A DNA stretch of 64,000 bases from Alphaproteobacteria bacterium (GCA_022449545.1 JAKUPN010000002.1:123255-187254), one strand, 5' to 3'. Shown: positions 2,461 through 15,304, counted from the stretch's first letter. Numbers and translations: made by a program. Notes: a model not told the origin generated them from the sequence alone.

Positions 2461-4854
2461 ATGGTCAATGAAACGATAACAGCTCCAGACGCAAGTGTTC
2501 TTGGTCGACCAAATTCGTATATTGGTCGAAGTGTGCCACGCCCTAATGCAAAACGACTTATGGCGGGGCAGGGCCAGTTTGTTGATGATATGAAACTTCA
2601 GCGCATGGTTCATGTCGCATTTGTTCGATCTCCTTATGCACATGCCCACATAAAAGGAATTGATACTAAAGCTGCTTCAAGTAGTCCCGGGGTCGTCAAA
2701 GTAATAACTGCAAAAGATTTAGAATCATATTGTTCTCCTTGGGTAGGAGTGTTAACCCATTTCAAAGGACTGAAATCGGCTCCTCAGCATCCGCTTGCGG
2801 CTGATCATGTTTGTTGGCAGGGAGAAGCGGTTGCCGCAGTCGTAGCAAATAGTCGTGCAGAAGCAGAGGATGCAGTCGCTTTGGTTGAGGTTTCATATGA
2901 AGAACTACCCGTAGTAAGCGAACCTGAAACTGCAGCAGATCCTTCTACGCATGTGATTCATCCCGAATTAGGAGATAATATTGCTTTCGAAAATTCAGTT
3001 GAGGCTGGTGATGTTGATTCAGCATTTAGTAACGCCGCTTTAATAGTAGAAGAAAACTTTCTTTTTGAACGCCACACAGGCGTTACGCTCGAACCTAGGG
3101 TTATGCTGTCTGATTACAATCAGACTGAGGACAAGTTAACTGTTTATATGTCTTTCCAGGCCCCTCACATGATGCAACATATTTTTGCTAAACATATCAG
3201 TGTGCCTGAGGGGAACGTTCGAGTTATTTGCCAAGATGTGGGAGGGTCGTTTGGCATAAAAGTACATATATACGCTGATGAGATGGCTACTGCGGCTATC
3301 TCTAAAATGTTAGGCAGGCCTGTTAAGTTTACCGCGGATAGGCTGGAGTCATTCGTAACTGATATTCACGCGCGACACCATAGGGTTAATGGACGTATGG
3401 CTTTTTCTTCTCAGGGAGAGATTTTGGGCATCGAAATAGACGCCCTAACTGGTATTGGCCCCTATTCGATGTATCCACGTACAAGCGCGATGGAAACGAA
3501 CCAAGTCTTAAACTTTACAGGCGGCCCCTATAAACATGAAAACTACAGGGCTAAATCTCAAGTTGTTTTTCAAAATAAAAATGTTATGTGCCAATATCGC
3601 GCTGTTGGCCATCCAATAGCATTTGCTGTCACTGAGGGCCTGCTAGAAAAGGGCGCCCATCAGTTAGAGATTGATCCAGTTGAAATTCGGCGGCTTAATT
3701 TAATTCCCGATGACGCATACCCCACTAAGGGAGCCAGCGGAATAATTCTAGAAGCATTGTCTCATGAGAAGAGTCTCGAGAAATTAATGGAAATGATGGA
3801 TTACGAGGCAATCAAAAGTGATCGGGATACACTTCGTGAATCAGGAGTTTATCGAGGCATCGGATTTGCAGCAATGATAGAGCTGACTAATCCAGGTGCG
3901 ATGATGTATGGGATTGGAGGGGCGCGTATTTCATCGCAGGATGGCGCTCAGGTGCGCCTTGATTCTGGTGGCTCAATTATAGTCCATCATAGTGTTACAG
4001 AGCAGGGTCAGGGGACAGATGCTATAATGGCTCAAATAGCTGCAACAGCCTTTGGAATTGAAATTGATAAAGTTCGGGTGGTTAGCGGAGACACAGATAA
4101 TGTGCCGACCGGCGGTGGAACATGGGGTTCTCGAGGTGCTGGCATAGGAGGCGAGGCTGTACTAATCGCATCTAAAGCCTTGCGCAATAACGTTGTCGAT
4201 TTAGCTGGACAGTTATTGCAGTCTGAGCCTGAGGCACTAGATATTGTTGAAGGCGTTATCGTCGATAAGGCGGATGGCACGGAACGCATGCCTTTAAGCG
4301 AAGTTGCAAGGATTGGTTATTTTCGCTCTGATTTAATACCGAAAGGTTTTCAAGCTGAGTTAATGGCAACCCGTCATTTCGTCCCTCGCGAATATAACAT
4401 TGCTTTTACAAATGGAATTCAAGCTTGTCATGTAGAGGTAGACCCTGAAACAGGTTTTGTAAAAATTTTAAAACATTGGGTTGTGGAAGACTGTGGCACA
4501 GTCATTAACCCTCTCCTGGTCGATGAGCAAGTACGGGGAGGTGTTATCTGGGGTCGCGGGGGGGCTTTACTTGAAGAATGTGTTTACGACGAAAGTGGTA
4601 ATATGATTAATGCGAATATGGCCGATTACCTGGTTCCTATGGCAATGGAGATGCCAGATATTGAAGTTGGGCATGTAGAAACACCGACAATGGATTCTGA
4701 GCTTGGCGCTAAGGGGGCTGGAGAAGCTGGAACCGCTGGAGCCCCAGCGGCAGTTATGAATGCGATCAATGATGCCATTAGGCCTTTTAACGCGCGTGTT
4801 TCTCATCAGCCGATTACACCGCAGAAGATTTTATCTGCTTTAGGAAAATTTTAG
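2461..4854 (+). CDS. xanthine dehydrogenase family molybdopterin-binding (large) subunit, CoxL/aldehyde oxidase-like
   Basis: The 797-aa product has a Mo hydroxylase large-subunit N-terminus and core (VAFVRSPYAHAHIKGID, GGSFG, GxGEAG near the C-terminus). A GGAG RBS is present. No adjacent FeS or FAD subunit genes were found. Confidence 0.8.
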   Translation: MVNETITAPDASVLGRPNSYIGRSVPRPNAKRLMAGQGQFVDDMKLQRMVHVAFVRSPYAHAHIKGIDTKAASSSPGVVKVITAKDLESYCSPWVGVLTHFKGLKSAPQHPLAADHVCWQGEAVAAVVANSRAEAEDAVALVEVSYEELPVVSEPETAADPSTHVIHPELGDNIAFENSVEAGDVDSAFSNAALIVEENFLFERHTGVTLEPRVMLSDYNQTEDKLTVYMSFQAPHMMQHIFAKHISVPEGNVRVICQDVGGSFGIKVHIYADEMATAAISKMLGRPVKFTADRLESFVTDIHARHHRVNGRMAFSSQGEILGIEIDALTGIGPYSMYPRTSAMETNQVLNFTGGPYKHENYRAKSQVVFQNKNVMCQYRAVGHPIAFAVTEGLLEKGAHQLEIDPVEIRRLNLIPDDAYPTKGASGIILEALSHEKSLEKLMEMMDYEAIKSDRDTLRESGVYRGIGFAAMIELTNPGAMMYGIGGARISSQDGAQVRLDSGGSIIVHHSVTEQGQGTDAIMAQIAATAFGIEIDKVRVVSGDTDNVPTGGGTWGSRGAGIGGEAVLIASKALRNNVVDLAGQLLQSEPEALDIVEGVIVDKADGTERMPLSEVARIGYFRSDLIPKGFQAELMATRHFVPREYNIAFTNGIQACHVEVDPETGFVKILKHWVVEDCGTVINPLLVDEQVRGGVIWGRGGALLEECVYDESGNMINANMADYLVPMAMEMPDIEVGHVETPTMDSELGAKGAGEAGTAGAPAAVMNAINDAIRPFNARVSHQPITPQKILSALGKF

Positions 4855-4893
4855 ATTTATTAATTAAGTAATTAAAAATTTGGTGAAGGTTTA

Positions 4894-5586
4894 GTGTCTG
4901 ATATTGAGATCATTAGCTCTGCAACATGTCCTTTTGCGCAAAGAACAAGAATGGTTCTTTTGGAAAAAAACATCAATTTTGCGCTAATTGAAATTGACCT
5001 TGAAGACAAGCCAGACTGGTTTAAGGAAATTTCTCCTTACGGTAAGGTTCCAGTATTAAAGCACGACGGTAATATCGTGGTTGAATCAAGTATTATCAAT
5101 GAGTACTTAGAAGAAGTTTTTCCCAAAAACCCCCTGTTGCCGCTTGAGCCATCTAAAAGGGCTTTAGCTCGTAGGTGGATTGATTTTTCGAATGTAAGAC
5201 TGATTCCATATATATATAAAATAATGTTGGCGCAGGATATTGAAGCGCAAAATTTCAATGCTAAAAAACTAACTCAAGCATTATTAATGATAGAACATGA
5301 TGGCCTGGGTTCAACTTCTTCAGGTCCATATTGGCTCGGAGAAGATGTGGGGCTTGTTGATTTAAGTTTTTTACCCCACCTTCAGCGCATTTGTGTTTTG
5401 GAATATTATAGGAATTTTTATATTCCAGCGGAATGCGTGCTTTTAAATGCTTGGCTTCAGTTAATGTCCTTACGTCCGTCTGTTAATGCGGTATCATCTG
5501 AAAAGAGTGAATTAATTAAAAATTGGTCTAAGTACGCCTTAAACACTAGCACTGGCACAACCGCTGAAGATATGCGTGACCAATAA
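4894..5586 (+). CDS. glutathione S-transferase family protein
   Basis: The N-terminus has a thioredoxin-fold signature (ATCPFAQRTRMVLLEKNI, VPVLKHDGNIVVESSIINEYL). It starts at a GTG. Confidence 0.65.
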   Translation: MSDIEIISSATCPFAQRTRMVLLEKNINFALIEIDLEDKPDWFKEISPYGKVPVLKHDGNIVVESSIINEYLEEVFPKNPLLPLEPSKRALARRWIDFSNVRLIPYIYKIMLAQDIEAQNFNAKKLTQALLMIEHDGLGSTSSGPYWLGEDVGLVDLSFLPHLQRICVLEYYRNFYIPAECVLLNAWLQLMSLRPSVNAVSSEKSELIKNWSKYALNTSTGTTAEDMRDQ

Positions 5587-5703: not shown

Positions 5704-6936
5704 ATGGTACACATAAGTGAAATGCCTGAACATTTAGCAAAGGCTTTGATAAACCAAGAATTGCCTGTTTATGAATCTACCCCTTGGACTGATTTAAAAT
5801 CTCTCAAAGAAAGTAGGATTGCTTTAATTAGCACGGCTGGTCTGCACCGCAGCGTTGACTCTCCTTTTGTGGCGGGAGCTGGTGACTACAGAATTATTCC
5901 TGATGAATGGGACATGGATGATCTGGTAATGAGCCATGTGTCCACCAACTTCGATCGAACTGGATTCTTTCAAGACCTCAATACTGTCTTTCCCATCGAT
6001 CGACTACATGAGTTGGACGAGGAAGAAGTTATAGGCTCCGTAGCCTCTCGCCATTATTCATTTATGGGAGCTACTCCTCCGCATTTAATGGAAACTGTCG
6101 CACGTGATCTCGCTGGGCTTCTTAAAGAAGATGAGGTTAACGCTGTGCTTTTGGTTCCTGTCTGACCTCAATGTACGCGCGCCGTTGGCGGGCTGTCACA
6201 TGTTTTAGAAAGCGAAGGAGTAGCAACTACACATATAAGCTTGGTTCGCATTCATACTGAAAAGATGAAGCCTCCAAGGGCTTTAGCAGTTCCATTTGAA
6301 TTAGGCAGGCCGTTTGGTGCCCCTAATGAGGTCGAATTTCAAAGGAAAGTTCTGCATAACTGTCTCGAATTACTAGAACGAGAATCAGGCCCTGTCCTTG
6401 AGGATTTTTCTGATTTGCCGCCGGTTGATGAAAATCAAGGCTCAGAGAATTGGGCCTGTCCAGTTAATTTTGCTCCGCCTATGGATGATCTGAATGACGC
6501 AGATTTAATCTATCAGTCTTTATTACAAGAGACAAACCTTTTACGGCCTTGGTATGAAGAAGCGGTAAGGAACTATAAACGGTCAGCATTTGGTGTTTCA
6601 GGAAAGACAACAGCTGAGATTGTCAGATTTATTGCCGATCTTTTGGTTGATCCTCAAAATCAGCAGCCACCTATTGACGGCGTGAATCTTGGCACGGGAT
6701 TTAAAAGAATGGCTGATGATTTGCGTTATTTTTATACAGAAGCAGCTATAGCGCGTCCCGATAAAAAATCGTCCGATATTGATGTAGCTAACTGGCTTTG
6801 GGGTGAAACGACCTTGGGTAAGGTACTGGTGGCTATACGTGATTATGCTATGGAGTGCGATGAGCCGTCACTAAAAGTCTTGTCGGTAACAGCCATGGTG
6901 CCTAGCCATCAGCGTCATCGAACAAAGCACGGTTAA
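5704..6936 (+). CDS. glycine/betaine/sarcosine/D-proline reductase family selenoprotein B (GrdB-like); the in-frame TGA at 6163-6165 is read as selenocysteine
   Basis: Track ORFs 5683..6165 and 6241..6936 are in the same frame, and the 75 nt between them contain no stop other than the TGA. Read-through gives ...LLVPV-U-PQC-TRAVGG..., a U-x-x-C motif. A SECIS-like hairpin follows the TGA. The most likely start is the ATG at 5704, which has a GGAG RBS. The conceptual product is about 410 aa, matching the selenoprotein B family size. The family assignment is from recalled similarity, not a search. Confidence 0.6.
6171..6201 (+). promoter_or_regulatory. candidate bacterial SECIS element (SelB-binding hairpin) just 3' of the in-frame UGA
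   Basis: The sequence AUGUACGCGCGCC-GUUG-GCGGGCUGUCACAU lies at +6..+36 after the UGA. It has a lower stem AUGU/ACAU, a GC-rich upper stem GCGCGCC/GGCGGGC with one mismatch, and an apical G/U-containing loop about 20 nt from the UGA. It stands out as GC-rich in AT-rich surroundings. Confidence 0.45.
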
Positions 6937-6963: not shown

Positions 6964-9186
6964 TTACTCAAATACTAGCGATGGTAGTGTTCCTCTGATT
7001 TCGTTGACAGAACCAATAATAGTTGCATCAGGTGCAGACGTTTTAATTAACTCTGCAACGCATTCCTCGGCAAAATCCTCGGAAATAGAGAATAAAAGTC
7101 CTCCAGCTGTTTGAGGGTCGAATAATATAGGATAGGCATTATGACTTATGGGTTTGTGGTAACCAGTCATGGCATTTTGATTGTCTTCCTTCAGGGTGCT
7201 CTCAATTCCTTGTCTGGATAGTTCTGCAGCTCCTTCTAGTAGCGGGAGCGAACTAAGATTTAGGGAGGCACTTACGTTGGAGGCGTTCAACATTTCCACT
7301 AAATGCCCTAACAAACCGAAGCCGGTTACATCTGTGCACGCTTCGACCCTATACTTTTGCAATATAGGAACAAGCGGCCCTAATGAACGCTGCATTGACG
7401 TTATTGCTTGTTCTATCCAGTCTCCACGAGACTTACCTTGCATATCGGCAGCAAATAATATTCCGGTGCCTAAAGGCTTAGTTAAGATTAGTATGTCTTG
7501 AGGCTTTAAAGCTCCTTTGCGCATGATTTTTTCTGGATCAACGTAACCGTTGACAGTCAGCCCAAATGCCATTTCAGCCCCTTCTCCGGTATGTCCTCCT
7601 GCTAGGACTGCATCTGCTTCACTAAGTGTTTTTGTGGCTCCTAACAATAGCTGATAAAGATCGTCTGAAATGATATTTTCATTATTATGTGGCAATAGGA
7701 TGGCCGCAAGCGCTGAGTGTGGTTTAGCTCCCATGGCGAAAATATCTCCTAAACAATGATTAGAAGCTATTTGTGCAAATATATAGGGGTCATCAATGAA
7801 ACTACGAAATTGATCAACGCTTTGAATCAATGCTTTGCCCGACGGTGGAATTATTACAGCAGCGTCATCCGGTGATTCTAGGCCCTGCACCAATCCCTGT
7901 TTAGTTTGGGCAGGCAGTCTATCCAAGGCTTGATGCAGAATTGTTGAAGCAACTTTAGCGCCACAACCGCCACATCGCATTTCCTCTATAATATCATCTT
8001 TACCGTTTGATTTTTTTGTGGCCGACATCTGAGGTAAATTTTGGTATTTTTCTATCCATCTGCGATCTATCCAGTCTTTCCAATGCCAGACCCATTTTCC
8101 TGAGAGCATTATAGAGCCACGAGCTGCGATTGCTCTGCCATCCCCGGTCGTAATTAATGCCAGTGTTTGTTTTTGGGGTTTATATTTTTTTAAGGGAAAT
8201 TCGATAGCTGCTCGTCTTAAGTTCTCTGCTAAGTATGGCCCTTGACGAACTGCATATACCCCTGACTTTGGTAAGTCATAGTTTTCAAGGGATGCTATGT
8301 CACCGGTTGCATAAACTATAGGATGTGAAACAGAACGCAGATTTTTATCTATCCTAATAAAGCCGTTCCGATCTAGGGCTAATCCTGTATCTGCTAGCCA
8401 AGAGGGGGCCTCAGCATTTGTAACCAAGATTGTTCTATCTGCTGGTAATATTTTTCCATTAGAAAGAATTACACTATCAGTGTTAATTTGATTTATTTTT
8501 GTGTCCGTTATAGCCGTAATTCGTCGCTTTTTTATTACATCAATTATTTTTCTTCTAGCAGTCTTATTGAAGTTTGGAAGTAGAGTGCTGAAACCTTCAA
8601 TTATAAAGATTGATAATTTTTCTGGTGTCTTAATTAACGAATGATTGCTGCTTCGTAATTGTTGGTCTAATGATAGGCTCAACTCTACCCCGCCAGCTCC
8701 TCCCCCAACGATAACAATATTATAATTATCTGATTTATCTGAGATTTCTTTATTAATTTCAGCCTGTTCTTTTAAAAAGAGATTGATTGGCTTGACAGGC
8801 AAGGCGTTTTCAGCGCCGCTTATGTCGGAAGATTTTGGGACACTACCGGTGTCAAGTGACAGTAAGTCGAACCTAACATCTGGCCTTCCATCGACGGATA
8901 TTAATCTTTTCGATAAGTCTAGATTTGTAGCTGATGCATGAATAAATCTTGCCCCCGCGAATTTGCTAAGTTTCCGTAGATCTATGAGACTTTCATCTGT
9001 TTTATAGTTTTGTGCTATCAGTCCTGGCACCATTCCAGAATATGGAGTTACAAGATCGCGTGAAATTAAAGTAACCCTCAATCCAGACTGCGGTTTCATA
9101 CCAAACTTTTTTAATACGTGCAGATGACTGTGACCGCCACCGACCAGAACGACATCTTTTTGAAAAGGTTCAGAATTAGTATGCAT
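6964..9186 (-). CDS. selD: selenide, water dikinase SelD fused to an N-terminal FAD/NAD(P)-dependent pyridine nucleotide-disulfide oxidoreductase (NADH dehydrogenase-like) domain
   Basis: The N-terminal half has two Rossmann motifs (VVLVGGGHSH and IVIVGGGAGGVE). The C-terminal half carries the SelD catalytic motif RCGGCGAKV and PurM-like segments (LTKPLGTG, TDVTGFGLLGHL). The track start at 9252 would overlap the tRNA-Sec, so the start was moved to the ATG at 9186 (MHTNSEPF...). Confidence 0.8.
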   Translation of the reverse strand: MHTNSEPFQKDVVLVGGGHSHLHVLKKFGMKPQSGLRVTLISRDLVTPYSGMVPGLIAQNYKTDESLIDLRKLSKFAGARFIHASATNLDLSKRLISVDGRPDVRFDLLSLDTGSVPKSSDISGAENALPVKPINLFLKEQAEINKEISDKSDNYNIVIVGGGAGGVELSLSLDQQLRSSNHSLIKTPEKLSIFIIEGFSTLLPNFNKTARRKIIDVIKKRRITAITDTKINQINTDSVILSNGKILPADRTILVTNAEAPSWLADTGLALDRNGFIRIDKNLRSVSHPIVYATGDIASLENYDLPKSGVYAVRQGPYLAENLRRAAIEFPLKKYKPQKQTLALITTGDGRAIAARGSIMLSGKWVWHWKDWIDRRWIEKYQNLPQMSATKKSNGKDDIIEEMRCGGCGAKVASTILHQALDRLPAQTKQGLVQGLESPDDAAVIIPPSGKALIQSVDQFRSFIDDPYIFAQIASNHCLGDIFAMGAKPHSALAAILLPHNNENIISDDLYQLLLGATKTLSEADAVLAGGHTGEGAEMAFGLTVNGYVDPEKIMRKGALKPQDILILTKPLGTGILFAADMQGKSRGDWIEQAITSMQRSLGPLVPILQKYRVEACTDVTGFGLLGHLVEMLNASNVSASLNLSSLPLLEGAAELSRQGIESTLKEDNQNAMTGYHKPISHNAYPILFDPQTAGGLLFSISEDFAEECVAELIKTSAPDATIIGSVNEIRGTLPSLVFE

Positions 9187-9216
9187 GAATAGCTTTAGTG
9201 TTATAGAAATTGATTG

Positions 9217-9312
9217 TGGCGGAAGAGAGTGGGAGTCGAACCCACCAGGCACGTCTGACGCCCCTCACCGGATTTGAAGTCCGAGCGCCCCACCGGGGTG
9301 CGATCCTCTTCC
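9217..9312 (-). tRNA. selC: tRNA-Sec (selC), anticodon UCA
   Basis: The reverse complement reads GGAAGAGG-AU-CGC(A)CCC[CGGU]GGGGCG-CUCGGA[CUUCAAA]UCCGG-long variable arm-GUGGG[UUCGACU]CCCAC-UCUCUUCC-G-CCA. It has an 8-bp acceptor stem, a 5-bp T stem, a D-arm with a CGGU loop, a UCA anticodon in a CUUCAAA loop, a long extra arm and an encoded CCA. It is 96 nt long. Confidence 0.85.
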
Positions 9313-9500
9313 ATGGTTATTTTCCTCGTCTTTTGATTGTGAGACAAGTCCTCTGACAATAAAGAATTTTTCATAGTTCAATTTGGCTTTTTTGATTTAG
9401 AGTAGTAAGTTGCTTGTTGAATATAATAGTTTTTTGGTAAAATGAACTTAATCGAGTAGAGTAAATTTTTGCGATAAAGTTACCTGATCTGGGGGTTAAA

Positions 9501-9821
9501 ATGACTAGTGATGATGTTGGTGGTGTTTTGTTACAATTCTTTGCACTGCCTTTAGTAGTAATATTTATTTGTACTCTAGTACTATTGATAAACAGATATA
9601 AAGACCTTAGGGGAGATATTCCTTGGGTTGATACACAACGTGAAGCATATATATCTTTAGTCGTTGGTGCCATCGTGACGGTTGTTGTGACATTGATAAT
9701 AGGAGGCCCGGAACTCTTCGTATTATATTGGCGACCACTTATAACAACGGTGATTACATTGCCTATAGGGTTTGGTGCGGCTCTTGTTGTTTTCGGATGT
9801 TGGCATAAACTCAGAAATTAG
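9501..9821 (+). CDS. hypothetical small membrane protein
   Basis: The 106-aa product has three hydrophobic helices. It has no recognisable family. Confidence 0.35.
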   Translation: MTSDDVGGVLLQFFALPLVVIFICTLVLLINRYKDLRGDIPWVDTQREAYISLVVGAIVTVVVTLIIGGPELFVLYWRPLITTVITLPIGFGAALVVFGCWHKLRN

Positions 9822-11960: not shown

Positions 11961-13895
11961 TTAATCATCATTATTCTTTTCGGTGCTGGGGAAAAGTTTA
12001 TTAATGGCGCCTATCTGCTTTCGAGTGTTGCCTTCGCGTTTGGAAAGTCCTGAGCGATCAAAAAACTCTAATATTTCAATAGTTAGATTACGCCCAATTT
12101 TGGTGTGATCTTTAAACACTCTGGGGCTTACCCCTTGAAGTTCACTTTGGGATAAATCGGAGAAAATATTTGCTAAATTTTTTATTGCGCTTGTTTCAAA
12201 AAACCGGTTTTTCCCGACTTGAATAACTAAGCCAGCTTTAGCCGCATTACGCAGAGCAGTCATCACTACTTCAGGTGGTTTGCTTATTTCGTTCGCTAAG
12301 TCGTGAATAACAGGCGGTTGAAACGGTTTATTAGTTATGATGGGCTGGATCTCTTTCCACAAATCCAAATCTTTCTGATCTAAAATTGGTTTACGATTCG
12401 GCTTGTATAAGAACATACCATCAGATGAAATTATGTTTTCATCTACTAAAGAGTTTACTATTTCAGAAAAGACACCATCAATTAGTTTTCTTTTTATGTT
12501 TTGGTTTAGCTGTAATAAACTGGGACCTATCTTGTTACTATGATTTATATGATACTCATCAAGTGCAGACAGTGCCTCGTCTCGTAAAACGCCCCATATA
12601 GCCTTGGACAAAGCTATTATTCGCTGGTTGGGGCTAATAATAATTGCTTTAAGGTCTGTCGCTAATTTGGTTGCCTGCCCAACAGGCAAATTTCTTGTAA
12701 TTGAAAAAAGCTCTATATCTAGACCCGAAGGTGACAAATTTAGAGCCTTTTCTAATGCGATAGAATCGTCTTCATTATTAAGAGCCTCCAGCATTCTAAC
12801 TCTTTCTTGGCGGGCGCGACCTCGATTAGGAGGAAAAATATCGATTACATACCCACCACCAACTGTACGCTGGGCGGATTGATCTCTAATTATAAATCGA
12901 TCTCCTGCCACAGCCCCTATTGGGGTATCAAGAACCAATTGTGCAAAGGAATCTTCCCCAGGAATTACTTTTTCATTATTTAAAAGGGCAATACGTCCTG
13001 TTACGTCAGCTGCGCCAAGGTGTACATGCACTGATGTCCAGTGTTTAAAAGGTCGTTTTTCGTTTTCTAAGATACTTAAGTTAACATCTATCTTTCTTAT
13101 CGTTTTCATTAAAGGGTTAGAGACCACCCAATCTCCTCTCCGTACCAGTTCCTTGTCAATGCCACTTAAGTTTATAGCGCAACGTTGACCAGTAGAACCG
13201 TCTTCTGAGCTTTGGCTGTTAGCCCGTATGTCTCTTACACGGGCCGACCTCATTGTATTTGTTAAATAGACTTGATCTCCAACTTTTATTTGGCCGGAAA
13301 AAATAGTTCCTGTGACAATTAGGCCCGCTCCAGGCTTTATGAACGCTCTGTCAATAGCTAACCTAAACTCTCCGCTATCTGTTCTATTTTTTGGGTTTTT
13401 TGCAACATGTAAAAGGTGATCTGTGAGAGACTCTATCCCTCGTCCAGTAACGGCAGAAACAGGAAAAATAGGAAAATTTTTTAAGTTAGTGGCACTCAAT
13501 AAATTGGTTGTTGATCTAGTTACTTCTTCTATTCTATTTGATTCAACTCTATCAATTTTTGTAAGAGCTACGGCTCCTTCGCTGATTCCCAGTATATCCA
13601 ATATTGCCAAATGCTCTCTTGTTTGTGGCATCGGCCCATCGTCGCTTGCTATTACAAGTAATGCATAATCTATGCCAGTTACTCCAGCTAGCATGTTGCC
13701 TATGAATCTTTCATGTCCAGGAACGTCAACAAAACCAATAACTTTTTGTTCTTGGTATTGATGGTATGCGAACCCTAAATCAATAGTCATCCCCCGTTTT
13801 TTTTCTTCAGGCAGGCGATCGGCATCTTCTCCAGTTATTGCTTTAACTAAGAGGGTTTTTCCATGATCGATATGTCCAGCAGTAGCTATTATCAT
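11961..13895 (-). CDS. selB: selenocysteine-specific translation elongation factor SelB
   Basis: The N-terminus [44 protein letters not shown] is near-identical in pattern to E. coli SelB. The 644-aa product has a C-terminal winged-helix extension, and its start overlaps the selA stop. Confidence 0.85.
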
Positions 13896-15304
13896 TTTAA
13901 ATTTAATAAGGACATTTGAGAAACTAGTTCTTCTTCGTTTTCAAGGCATCTCAAATCCAACCAGTAAGAATCATTCATTATTCGACCAATAACTGGAACA
14001 GGTAATGATCTTAAACGTTCTGATAGTTGTTTAAGCACAGCTCCTTGTCCTTTTTTAACTATCGGAGATATTACTAGAGCATAACTATCAAGGTTCTCTA
14101 TAGGAAGAGCCCCACTACCAATTTGACTTCGGGTTGGTAAAACCTTGATCTTAAAACTATTACCGAGTTTTTTTCTGAGTTCAGCCGCTGTTCTGTCTGC
14201 CATCTCTTTTATTTCATCTGATGATCGAGTTAATATGCGCAATGACGGCAAACGTTTCATCAGTCGATCGGGATCGTTATAAAGACGAAGTGTTGCGGCC
14301 AAACAAGCGATGGTTATTTTATCACAACGCAGAGCACGCTTAAGTGGATTTTTCTTGAGTCTTTTGATCAGGTCAGATCGTCCAACGATTAATCCTGCTT
14401 GCGGCCCTCCCAAAAGTTTATCGCCTGAAAAGGTTACTAGATCAGCTCCATCTTTTATTGATTCTTGGGGAGTTCTTTCATGCGGCAAACCATAAACTTC
14501 GAGGTCCACCAAAGTTCCACTTCCTAAATCAACCACCAAGGGCAGTTCATATTTGTGGGCTAGAGTTGCAAGGTCGAGTTCTGATGCGGCACTAGTGAAG
14601 CCTTCAATAACATAGTTTGATGTGTGGACAGCCATTATTAGACCTGTTTTTGGACCAATAGCCTTTTCAAAATCAGAAAGATGGGTTCTGTTTGTCGTTC
14701 CTACTTCGATAAGGCGGCAATCCGATCGAGACATGATATCAGGAATCCGGAATGAACCCCCTATCTCGACCAACTCGCCTCTCGAAACGGGGACTTCCTT
14801 TTTTCTCGCTAAAGTATTTAGGACTAACATCACTGCGGCAGCGTTGTTATTAACCACTGTCGCTGCTTCAGCTCCGGTAAGAGAACAGATTAAATCTTCT
14901 ATATGGTCATCTCGATCGCTTCTCTCGCCTCTCTCTAAATCGAATTCTAAATTAGTTGTGCCAGAAGCAACCTCTTTCATGGCCTCAATAGCTTCAGAGG
15001 CAATTGGCGATCGCCCCAGGTTTGTGTGTAAAACTGTGCCGGTTAGGTTTAATACTGGCTTTAGTGTCGGTTTGTTGGCGCTATGGAGATAATCAGAAAC
15101 TAGAGATAAAATTTTATTTTCTTTAAAATCGAAGGTTGTTGTTTTTGATGTGCTTAGTTCTTTGCGTATGTCTTTGAGCACTGACCTGACCGCACTAACA
15201 GTTGCTTTTCGCCCGAACGATTCAATTAGCGCTATGAATGGTTCAGAGCGAAGTAAACGATCTACTGAAGGCAGTTTATAAAAGCCTGACATATTATTTT
15301 TCAT
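13892..15304 (-). CDS. selA: L-seryl-tRNA(Sec) selenium transferase SelA
   Basis: The N-terminus (YKLPSVDRLLRSEPFIAL) matches SelA, and the 470-aa product shows a PLP-fold. It overlaps selB by 4 nt (ATGA). The start may be the second ATG. Confidence 0.85.
   Translation of the reverse strand: MKNNMSGFYKLPSVDRLLRSEPFIALIESFGRKATVSAVRSVLKDIRKELSTSKTTTFDFKENKILSLVSDYLHSANKPTLKPVLNLTGTVLHTNLGRSPIASEAIEAMKEVASGTTNLEFDLERGERSDRDDHIEDLICSLTGAEAATVVNNNAAAVMLVLNTLARKKEVPVSRGELVEIGGSFRIPDIMSRSDCRLIEVGTTNRTHLSDFEKAIGPKTGLIMAVHTSNYVIEGFTSAASELDLATLAHKYELPLVVDLGSGTLVDLEVYGLPHERTPQESIKDGADLVTFSGDKLLGGPQAGLIVGRSDLIKRLKKNPLKRALRCDKITIACLAATLRLYNDPDRLMKRLPSLRILTRSSDEIKEMADRTAAELRKKLGNSFKIKVLPTRSQIGSGALPIENLDSYALVISPIVKKGQGAVLKQLSERLRSLPVPVIGRIMNDSYWLDLRCLENEEELVSQMSLLNLK

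Follow-up and report, generated by a model that had tools for sequence, protein, structure and literature searches.

Several tight arrangements of selC, the gene for the selenocysteine (Sec) tRNA, have been described. Among those known from Alphaproteobacteria and elsewhere are selABCD and selCD clusters, selC genes that are nested in selB, and selCAB operons in which the tRNA ends only 2 nt before selA (Mukai 2021, PMC8124441). For the nested genes and for the selCAB operon, it has been proposed that tRNA and mRNA are made as one co-transcript and are then separated by processing (PMC8124441). The same survey found a selC length of 96 nt to be typical of Alphaproteobacteria (PMC8124441). In Escherichia coli, the precursor of tRNA-Sec carries a leader of ~24 nt, which is removed by RNase P at a non-canonical site (PMC5499578). 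With respect to structure, the D arm of the canonical bacterial tRNA-Sec is unbulged and has a 6-bp stem and a loop of 4 nt; in the Clostridiales, a bulged D stem (13a) has been reported (PMC5330540).

Two groups of proteins from ocean metagenomes are also relevant to the locus described here. Ndh-SelD fusions with a CxxC motif make up ~40% of the Cys-type SelDs in these data (Zhang and Gladyshev 2008, PMC2398784), and PrdB-like UxxC selenoproteins (pfam07355) are abundant in them (PMC2398784). The fusion was described without discussion of a tRNA-Sec gene immediately upstream of it (PMC2398784).

Here, we analyze a stretch of alphaproteobacterial DNA of 64,000 nt (the window), for which a sequence-only reading had proposed a tRNA-Sec gene at 9217-9312 on the minus strand, just upstream of a selD fusion gene. 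Our comparisons make it very probable that 9217..9312 (−) is a true and functional selC gene and that selD begins at 9186. The features that carry this conclusion are as follows.

13892..15304, minus strand: selA, L-seryl-tRNA(Sec) selenium transferase, 470 aa (TIGR00474, 598.6 bits versus a cutoff of 267.9; PF03841, 533 bits)
11961..13895, minus strand: selB, selenocysteine-specific elongation factor, 644 aa (TIGR00475, 450 bits versus 242; SelB-specific Pfam domains)
9217..9312, minus strand: selC, tRNA-Sec gene, 96 nt (ARAGORN; Rfam RF01852; covariation on 13 homologs)
6964..9186, minus strand: selD, Ndh-SelD fusion, 740 aa (Pfam, NCBIfam, homologs)
5704..6936, plus strand: PrdB/GrdB-like selenoprotein gene, a candidate client (PF07355; in-frame TGA at 6163..6165; hairpin at 6172..6198)

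Identity and structure of the tRNA-Sec gene

Standard tools agree on the tRNA. ARAGORN returned tRNA-SeC with anticodon tca at 9217..9312 (−), exactly where the gene had been proposed, and found no other tRNA in the 64-kb window. The Rfam family for tRNA-Sec, RF01852, matched at 9221..9312 (−) with 72.5 bits against a gathering score of 47 (E = 6.6e-13). This match covers the full model (positions 1-91) and is the sole Rfam family match in the window. The gene is easily found in this way; it is absent only from the ORF track, which cannot show RNA genes.

The reverse complement of 9217..9312 reads GGAAGAGGAUCGCACCCCGGUGGGGCGCUCGGACUUCAAAUCCGGUGAGGGGCGUCAGACGUGCCUGGUGGGUUCGACUCCCACUCUCUUCCGCCA. 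Its acceptor stem (GGAAGAGG/UCUCUUCC) has 8 bp, the last pair being G8-U85, and its T arm (GUGGG-UUCGACU-CCCAC) has a 5-bp stem. The D arm (CGC-A-CCC / CGGU / GGGGCG) combines a 6-bp stem with a 1-nt bulge, an A at tRNA position 14 (window 9299) on the 5′ strand. The anticodon UCA sits within a 7-nt loop, CUUCAAA; the variable arm has seven pairs, one G-G mismatch, and a 3-nt loop; and the discriminator G93 (G73) is followed by an encoded CCA. Every defining feature of a bacterial tRNA-Sec that sequence analysis can address is present here. The sequence-only reading had named these elements, from the 8-bp acceptor stem with its terminal G-U and the 5-bp T stem to the UCA anticodon, the CGGU loop with its bulged A, the long variable arm, the discriminator G, and the encoded CCA, and each of them is present. 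Its description of the fold as textbook holds for the 8/5 cloverleaf but not for the D arm, where the bulge departs from the canonical 6-bp stem and 4-nt loop (PMC5330540).

The fold was evaluated by comparison with other genes rather than by energy. When selC was folded alone, its minimum free energy (MFE) was not discriminating (z = −1.23), and the MFE structure placed U85 in the T stem rather than in the acceptor stem, which yields a 7/6 drawing. Because the energy of a single sequence was uninformative, we collected homologs and relied on covariation. Specifically, 12 tRNA-Sec genes were taken from loci at which a relative of the downstream SelD is encoded (numbered with the prefix L below) and were aligned with the window gene. 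Across the 13 genes, 99.5% of the pair cells in the 8/5 cloverleaf are standard pairs, compared to 46-58% in slid controls, where the 3′ partners were moved by 1-3 columns. Pairing amounts to 98.9% in the acceptor stem (8 pairs) and to 100% in both the T stem (5 pairs) and the D stem (6 pairs). Compensatory changes affecting both sides occur at 9/31 pairs, values that none of 500 shuffles reached; in the variable arm, such changes were seen at 3 pairs. The eighth acceptor pair (8-85) is G-U in four genes, A-U in four, and G-C in three, and it is never A/C. Since this position covaries, we favor the 8/5 drawing over the 7/6 drawing of the MFE structure. Finally, the anticodon loop and the discriminator G are invariant in 13/13 homologs. 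The window tRNA-Sec is predicted to be aminoacylated and to function.

The bulge in the D stem deserves separate attention. The selC genes of pSymA, Phyllobacterium, L054 (Methyloligellaceae), and L023 (gammaproteobacterial), and presumably that of E. coli, have no additional A or U following position 13. The register of the stem is fixed by the pairs U13-A25 in L049 and G13-C25 in L023, which is without the bulge. To place the variant in a larger sample, we used 115 full-length metagenomic tRNA-Sec genes that share the 3′ 30-mer of the window gene (loci L091-L210). A 17-nt D arm, with its 1-nt bulge, was found in 22 of the 115, and the inner three pairs of the arm covary. This rules out the bulge as a novelty of one clade; on the comparative evidence, it is a real and recurrent minor variant. 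As a departure from the canonical D arm, its effect on recognition by SelA and SelB is a caveat to the view that selC is functional.

Similarity with known alphaproteobacterial genes is high, with 80-86% identity between the window selC and selC genes on Rhizobiales replicons, including pSymA of Sinorhizobium meliloti. In addition, the named near relatives of the window SelD come from metagenome-assembled genomes (MAGs) of Alphaproteobacteria and Rhodospirillaceae, of marine type. On the strength of these two comparisons, the assignment of the window to the Alphaproteobacteria holds.

The selD fusion and the Sec gene cluster

The selD product joins a pyridine nucleotide-disulfide oxidoreductase, in its N-terminal half, to a selenide, water dikinase in its C-terminal half (PF07992, PF00586, and PF02769). 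The protein scores 419.5 against TIGR03169 (“Nterm_to_SelD,” cutoff 310) and 289.3 against the selD equivalog TIGR00476 (cutoff 125), while its score of 510 against TIGR04369 (“fusion_not_SelD”) is under the cutoff of 700. By these family scores, it is an N-terminal oxidoreductase joined to a true SelD and not the “fusion_not_SelD” paralog. The active-site motif is RC405-GG-C408-GAK (CGGC, a CxxC motif), and both cysteines are invariant in 15 sequences. A public protein of 740 aa (P0001) is 100% identical to the window SelD, and another (P0002, from L081) is 90% identical, both of these closest matches being metagenomic; among the genome contigs that were scanned, the best identity was 56% (L001).

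All four genes of the Sec machinery are packed into 8.3 kb of the minus strand, and the stop codon of selA overlaps the start of selB by 4 nt. SelA, SelB, and SelD each pass the corresponding NCBIfam equivalog cutoff (TIGR00474, TIGR00475, and TIGR00476). Between selB and selC are genes for an isocitrate/isopropylmalate-type dehydrogenase (+) and a bicupin (−), along with a 106-aa hydrophobic ORF (+). This organization is shared: in relatives with 57-90% SelD identity, the order selA, selB, dehydrogenase, bicupin, small ORF, selC, selD, PrdB-like gene, glutathione S-transferase (GST), and molybdenum hydroxylase is kept.

Some details of the neighborhood may be recorded here. The 106-aa ORF (9501..9821, plus strand) is divergent from selC and has no Pfam or NCBIfam match; L081, L082, L084, and L085 each have an ORF of 102-111 aa at this place. 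The dehydrogenase gene, intact in the window (361 aa), appears in L081 (7285..8370, minus strand) as two separate calls, one of 203 aa and one of 147 aa, which may reflect a frameshift or an assembly error. On its other side, the cluster is adjoined by genes for the large subunit of a molybdopterin-binding hydroxylase (2461..4854, plus strand) and for the GST (4894..5586, plus strand), a neighborhood that is conserved in relatives. We saw no formate dehydrogenase genes next to the window cluster. In L088, a more distant relative, selC (3293..3388) comes right after selB, and a UGSC-family gene (PF24696) at 4568..5116, directly upstream of the fused selD, was called as ORFs of 101 aa and 73 aa; it is probably another selenoprotein gene that contains a TGA. 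Lastly, in a Rhodospirillaceae MAG (L027), ARAGORN reported a 94-nt “tRNA-Cys (gca)” at 13287..13380, ~1 kb downstream of a fused selD. It resembled a tRNA-Sec-like Cys tRNA at first sight, and we dropped it as a probable false positive, given that it had no Rfam match at E ≤ 0.01.

A candidate client gene

The PrdB-like gene is convergent with selD and lies 2.3 kb from selC. Its in-frame TGA (6163..6165) would yield the motif VPV-U-PQC (UxxC), and this TGA is kept in 7/7 relatives. The ~35 nt that follow are nearly invariant, even at synonymous sites, and the hairpin there is conserved. The GC core of this SECIS-like hairpin (6172..6198) spans 6177..6193 and begins 11 nt after the UGA, and the apical loop is GUU or GUG in 6/7 sequences. 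We take this geometry to be that of a bacterial SECIS, as in the E. coli fdhF element. The fold of the region as a single sequence is not significant (z = +0.83), and so support for the hairpin comes from its conservation and not from its fold energy.

In every relative examined, gene callers had annotated two ORFs, of 153 aa and ~250 aa, in place of this one gene. The 256-residue part after the Sec codon had no family match. We rejected the identification as a true D-proline reductase PrdB, because the TIGR04483 score is 83 bits against a cutoff of 300; the product is a PrdB/GrdB-like homolog only. A scan of the window for TGA-split ORFs gave nine further candidates, and the PrdB-like gene was the only credible one. 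Among the rest, one merely reads through the anticodon triplet of the tRNA itself, and the others are unconvincing by sequence alone, with no recognizable Sec-type motif around the TGA.

Taken together, the selC cluster and its candidate client gene suggest that the organism decodes UGA as selenocysteine. If so, tRNA-Sec(UCA) would be charged with serine and then converted to selenocysteinyl-tRNA by SelA, using selenophosphate that SelD supplies. SelB would bring the selenocysteinyl-tRNA to UGA codons that are followed by a SECIS hairpin, for example, in the PrdB-like gene.

Function of selC and the start of selD

The view that selC is functional and that selD begins at 9186 has two competitors, one for each of its parts. 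The tRNA-Sec gene could be a decaying remnant or pseudogene, in which case the cluster would serve selenium uses other than Sec, such as selenouridine and Se-dependent molybdenum hydroxylases. Molybdenum hydroxylase genes are indeed nearby, no tRNA-Sec lies within 10 kb in 75/80 genome loci that encode a fused Ndh-SelD, and selC remnants have been documented in some selB genes of Sinorhizobium and Rhizobium (PMC8124441). Yet the window gene is full length with all five helices intact, the changes among its homologs are compensatory, and its Rfam score is well above the threshold. Furthermore, selA and selB are intact and above their equivalog cutoffs, and the neighboring gene retains its in-frame TGA and SECIS-like hairpin in all seven relatives, which requires a working Sec system. 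We therefore consider decay of selC to be extremely improbable. The second competitor concerns the ORF track, where selD starts at GTG 9252, inside the tRNA gene. If that start were real, the tRNA-like sequence would be nested in, or would overlap, the selD ORF, much as selC does with selB. The ORF is open from 9252 across the 3′ half of the tRNA into selD, nested selC-in-selB ORFs have been proposed in Alphaproteobacteria (PMC8124441), and a gene caller began another downstream gene at the same GTG in L084. Nevertheless, the 22 residues that this start adds are simply the translated T arm and acceptor strand from the 3′ half of the tRNA, and the identical public protein, like most near homologs, is 740 aa long and begins at the equivalent of ATG 9186. 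SelD N-termini align from residue 1 with the consensus MTxxxPVxxDIVLVGGGHSH. In addition, the spacers between selC and selD in relatives (29, 30, 34, and 63 nt) are not all multiples of three, so the frame through the tRNA is not conserved. A start at GTG 9252 is very unlikely in light of this evidence, which supports ATG 9186 as the true start and the extension as an artifact; the sequence-only reading had preferred the ATG as well.

A similar case was noted in L084. There, the public call for a FAD-binding protein (7343..8902) starts at the same GTG within the tRNA-Sec gene (7283..7378) and overlaps the tRNA by 36 nt, as does the ORF-track start of selD in the window. From these two sequences, a GTG start inside the T-arm region of tRNA-Sec looks like a recurrent start-codon artifact that is caused by the tRNA.

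Linkage of selC and selD among relatives

In 10 further loci, selC is immediately upstream of a fused selD. The distances from the CCA end to selD are as follows.

29-34 nt (~35 nt in L108): L081, L082, L083, L085, L054, L108, L169
63 nt: L086, L087
~95 nt: L001

The genes upstream of selC differ in L086, L087, and L054, and since linkage is kept where this is so, the two genes seem to travel as a pair. In L084 and L088, selC and selD are not adjacent. Of 80 genomes in which selD is fused (43-56% identity to the query), only 5 have tRNA-Sec within 10 kb. Of 110 metagenomic tRNA-Sec loci of this type with enough downstream sequence, 19 had selD within 2.6 kb. The latter comprised fused selD at ~35 nt (2 loci), unfused and co-oriented selD at 55-102 nt (4 loci), fused selD at 0.9-2.4 kb (4 loci), and unfused, convergent selD (9 loci). 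No selD was found directly after selC among the ORFs of S. meliloti pSymA. In the loci sampled, tight selC-selD linkage is a recurrent minority arrangement overall and the norm in the window’s own clade.

Transcription of selC and selD

Two stretches of the minus strand bear on how the genes are expressed.

9319..9348, minus strand: promoter-like boxes for selC (register shared with relatives, anchored at tRNA +1)
9187..9216, minus strand: selC-selD spacer of 30 nt, from the CCA end at 9217 to the ATG at 9186 (sequence; fold, −1.5 kcal/mol)

The spacer is A/T-rich and, as its fold energy indicates, unstructured. Within its 30 nt there is no clear Shine-Dalgarno sequence, and no terminator-like or promoter-like site between selC and selD passed our consensus scan. 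With a threshold of 9/12, the scan found nothing near selC or selD. The spacer of the window does contain TATAAC (9200..9205), a sequence that lies 8 nt upstream of ATG 9186 and is not conserved.

Upstream of the tRNA, a −35-like box, C-TTGTCT (9348/9347..9342), is separated by a 17-nt gap from a −10-like box, GAAAAT (9324..9319), which ends 6 nt before G1 of the tRNA (9312) and would place the start at about +1. Each box scores 4/6. The same register, with CTTG at −36 and GAnnAT at −12..−7, is found in the window, L081, L082, L084, L085, L086, and L087, and three more loci (L001, L054, and L002) have it with an offset of 1 nt. Outside the boxes, the flanks could not be aligned. Upstream of the tRNA is the only place where conserved −35/−10-like boxes were seen. 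Across a broad set of metagenomic tRNA-Sec genes of this type, TTG shows hardly any enrichment at −37..−35 (10/104), and the boxes thus appear to be specific to the clade. From their shared register and position, we infer that they form the selC promoter.

The sequence-only reading had suggested that selC and selD, being on the same strand and 30 nt apart, may be co-transcribed. Strand and distance stand as described, and the comparative evidence makes co-transcription plausible. We favor one promoter ahead of the tRNA, from which transcription would continue into selD, because there is no terminator, the spacer is unstructured, the linkage is conserved, and boxes are found only upstream of the tRNA. 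On balance, we hold co-transcription to be reasonably probable. An argument can be made against it on several grounds. The promoter boxes are weak and fall under the threshold of the scan; the TATAAC of the window could be the −10 box of an independent, near-leaderless selD transcript; the longer spacers in L086, L087, and L001 (63 to ~95 nt) hold GC-rich hairpins that might attenuate read-through; and other genes stand between selC and selD in L084 and L088, so linkage is not obligatory. The main rival, accordingly, is that the two genes are expressed separately, with a monocistronic tRNA and with a selD promoter that overlaps the 3′ end of the tRNA and the spacer, giving a near-leaderless mRNA. 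The TATAAC, which matches 5/6 of the −10 consensus 8 nt ahead of the ATG in the spacers of both the window and L081, would fit this arrangement, as would the fact that selC of E. coli is expressed alone with its leader of ~24 nt (PMC5499578). L084 and L088 also show that selD can function apart from selC. However, there is no acceptable −35 box upstream of the TATAAC, where the acceptor strand of the tRNA stands instead, and the sequence is absent from the spacers of L082, L085, L086, and L087. Separate expression would also have to accommodate the lack of a terminator after the tRNA and a spacing of 29-34 nt that is conserved across lineages in which SelD is only 44-67% identical. We consider it rather unlikely.

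Under co-transcription, the most likely mode of expression would be a single transcript that begins at the promoter immediately upstream of the tRNA and runs through the tRNA into selD. Processing at the 3′ end of the tRNA would then separate the two products, and the selD mRNA would be left with a 5′ untranslated region that is short and unstructured. The position of the boxes allows a more specific and more tentative proposal, which we regard as less likely still than separate expression. According to this proposal, transcription of tRNA-Sec in this marine alphaproteobacterial clade would start at, or within ~2 nt of, the mature 5′ end, so that little or no trimming by RNase P would be needed. 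The transcript would continue into selD, and 3′ processing would make the 5′ end of the selD mRNA, so that the supplies of tRNA-Sec and of the selenium-donor enzyme would be coupled. A promoter geometry that predicts a start at about tRNA +1 may be the one mildly new lead from this locus, with the proviso that the boxes are weak and below the threshold of the scan.

Comparison with known systems

The main value of our analysis lies in annotation. It sets the start of selD at 9186 and not at 9252, and it rescues the neighboring PrdB-like gene as one gene, because its UGA would be decoded as selenocysteine. The locus also adds one more case of tight packing of selC beside a sel gene, and tRNA-mRNA co-transcription, and possibly leaderless transcription of tRNA-Sec, could be put to the test there. 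Neither of these would alter the current understanding of the Sec pathway.

Every element of the locus has already been described, including selABCD and selCD clusters, the Ndh-SelD fusion, and PrdB-like UxxC selenoproteins (PMC8124441, PMC2398784). The arrangement of selC and selD is ordinary, and the call of the tRNA-Sec gene is correct and useful as annotation. As in other bacterial tRNA-Sec genes (RF01852; E. coli, pSymA), the window selC has UCA in CUUCAAA, a 13-bp (8/5) helix, a long variable arm, G73, and an encoded CCA, and a CGGU tetraloop caps its long D stem. [quoted passage not shown]

With regard to gene order, the window resembles the arrangements surveyed by Mukai (PMC8124441) in that the four genes of the Sec machinery are clustered and selC abuts a sel protein gene on the same strand. 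Unlike in those arrangements, selC is neither in nor adjacent to selB, from which three genes separate it; its partner is the fused Ndh-SelD, and the adjacent client is PrdB-like. The fusion itself is like those of marine and aquatic microbes (PMC2398784), with a FAD/NAD oxidoreductase N terminus on SelD and a CxxC active site, and we found no difference at the level tested. Similarly, the candidate client shares with the PrdB-like UxxC selenoproteins (PMC2398784) its PF07355 homology, its U-PQ-C motif, and a hairpin after the UGA.
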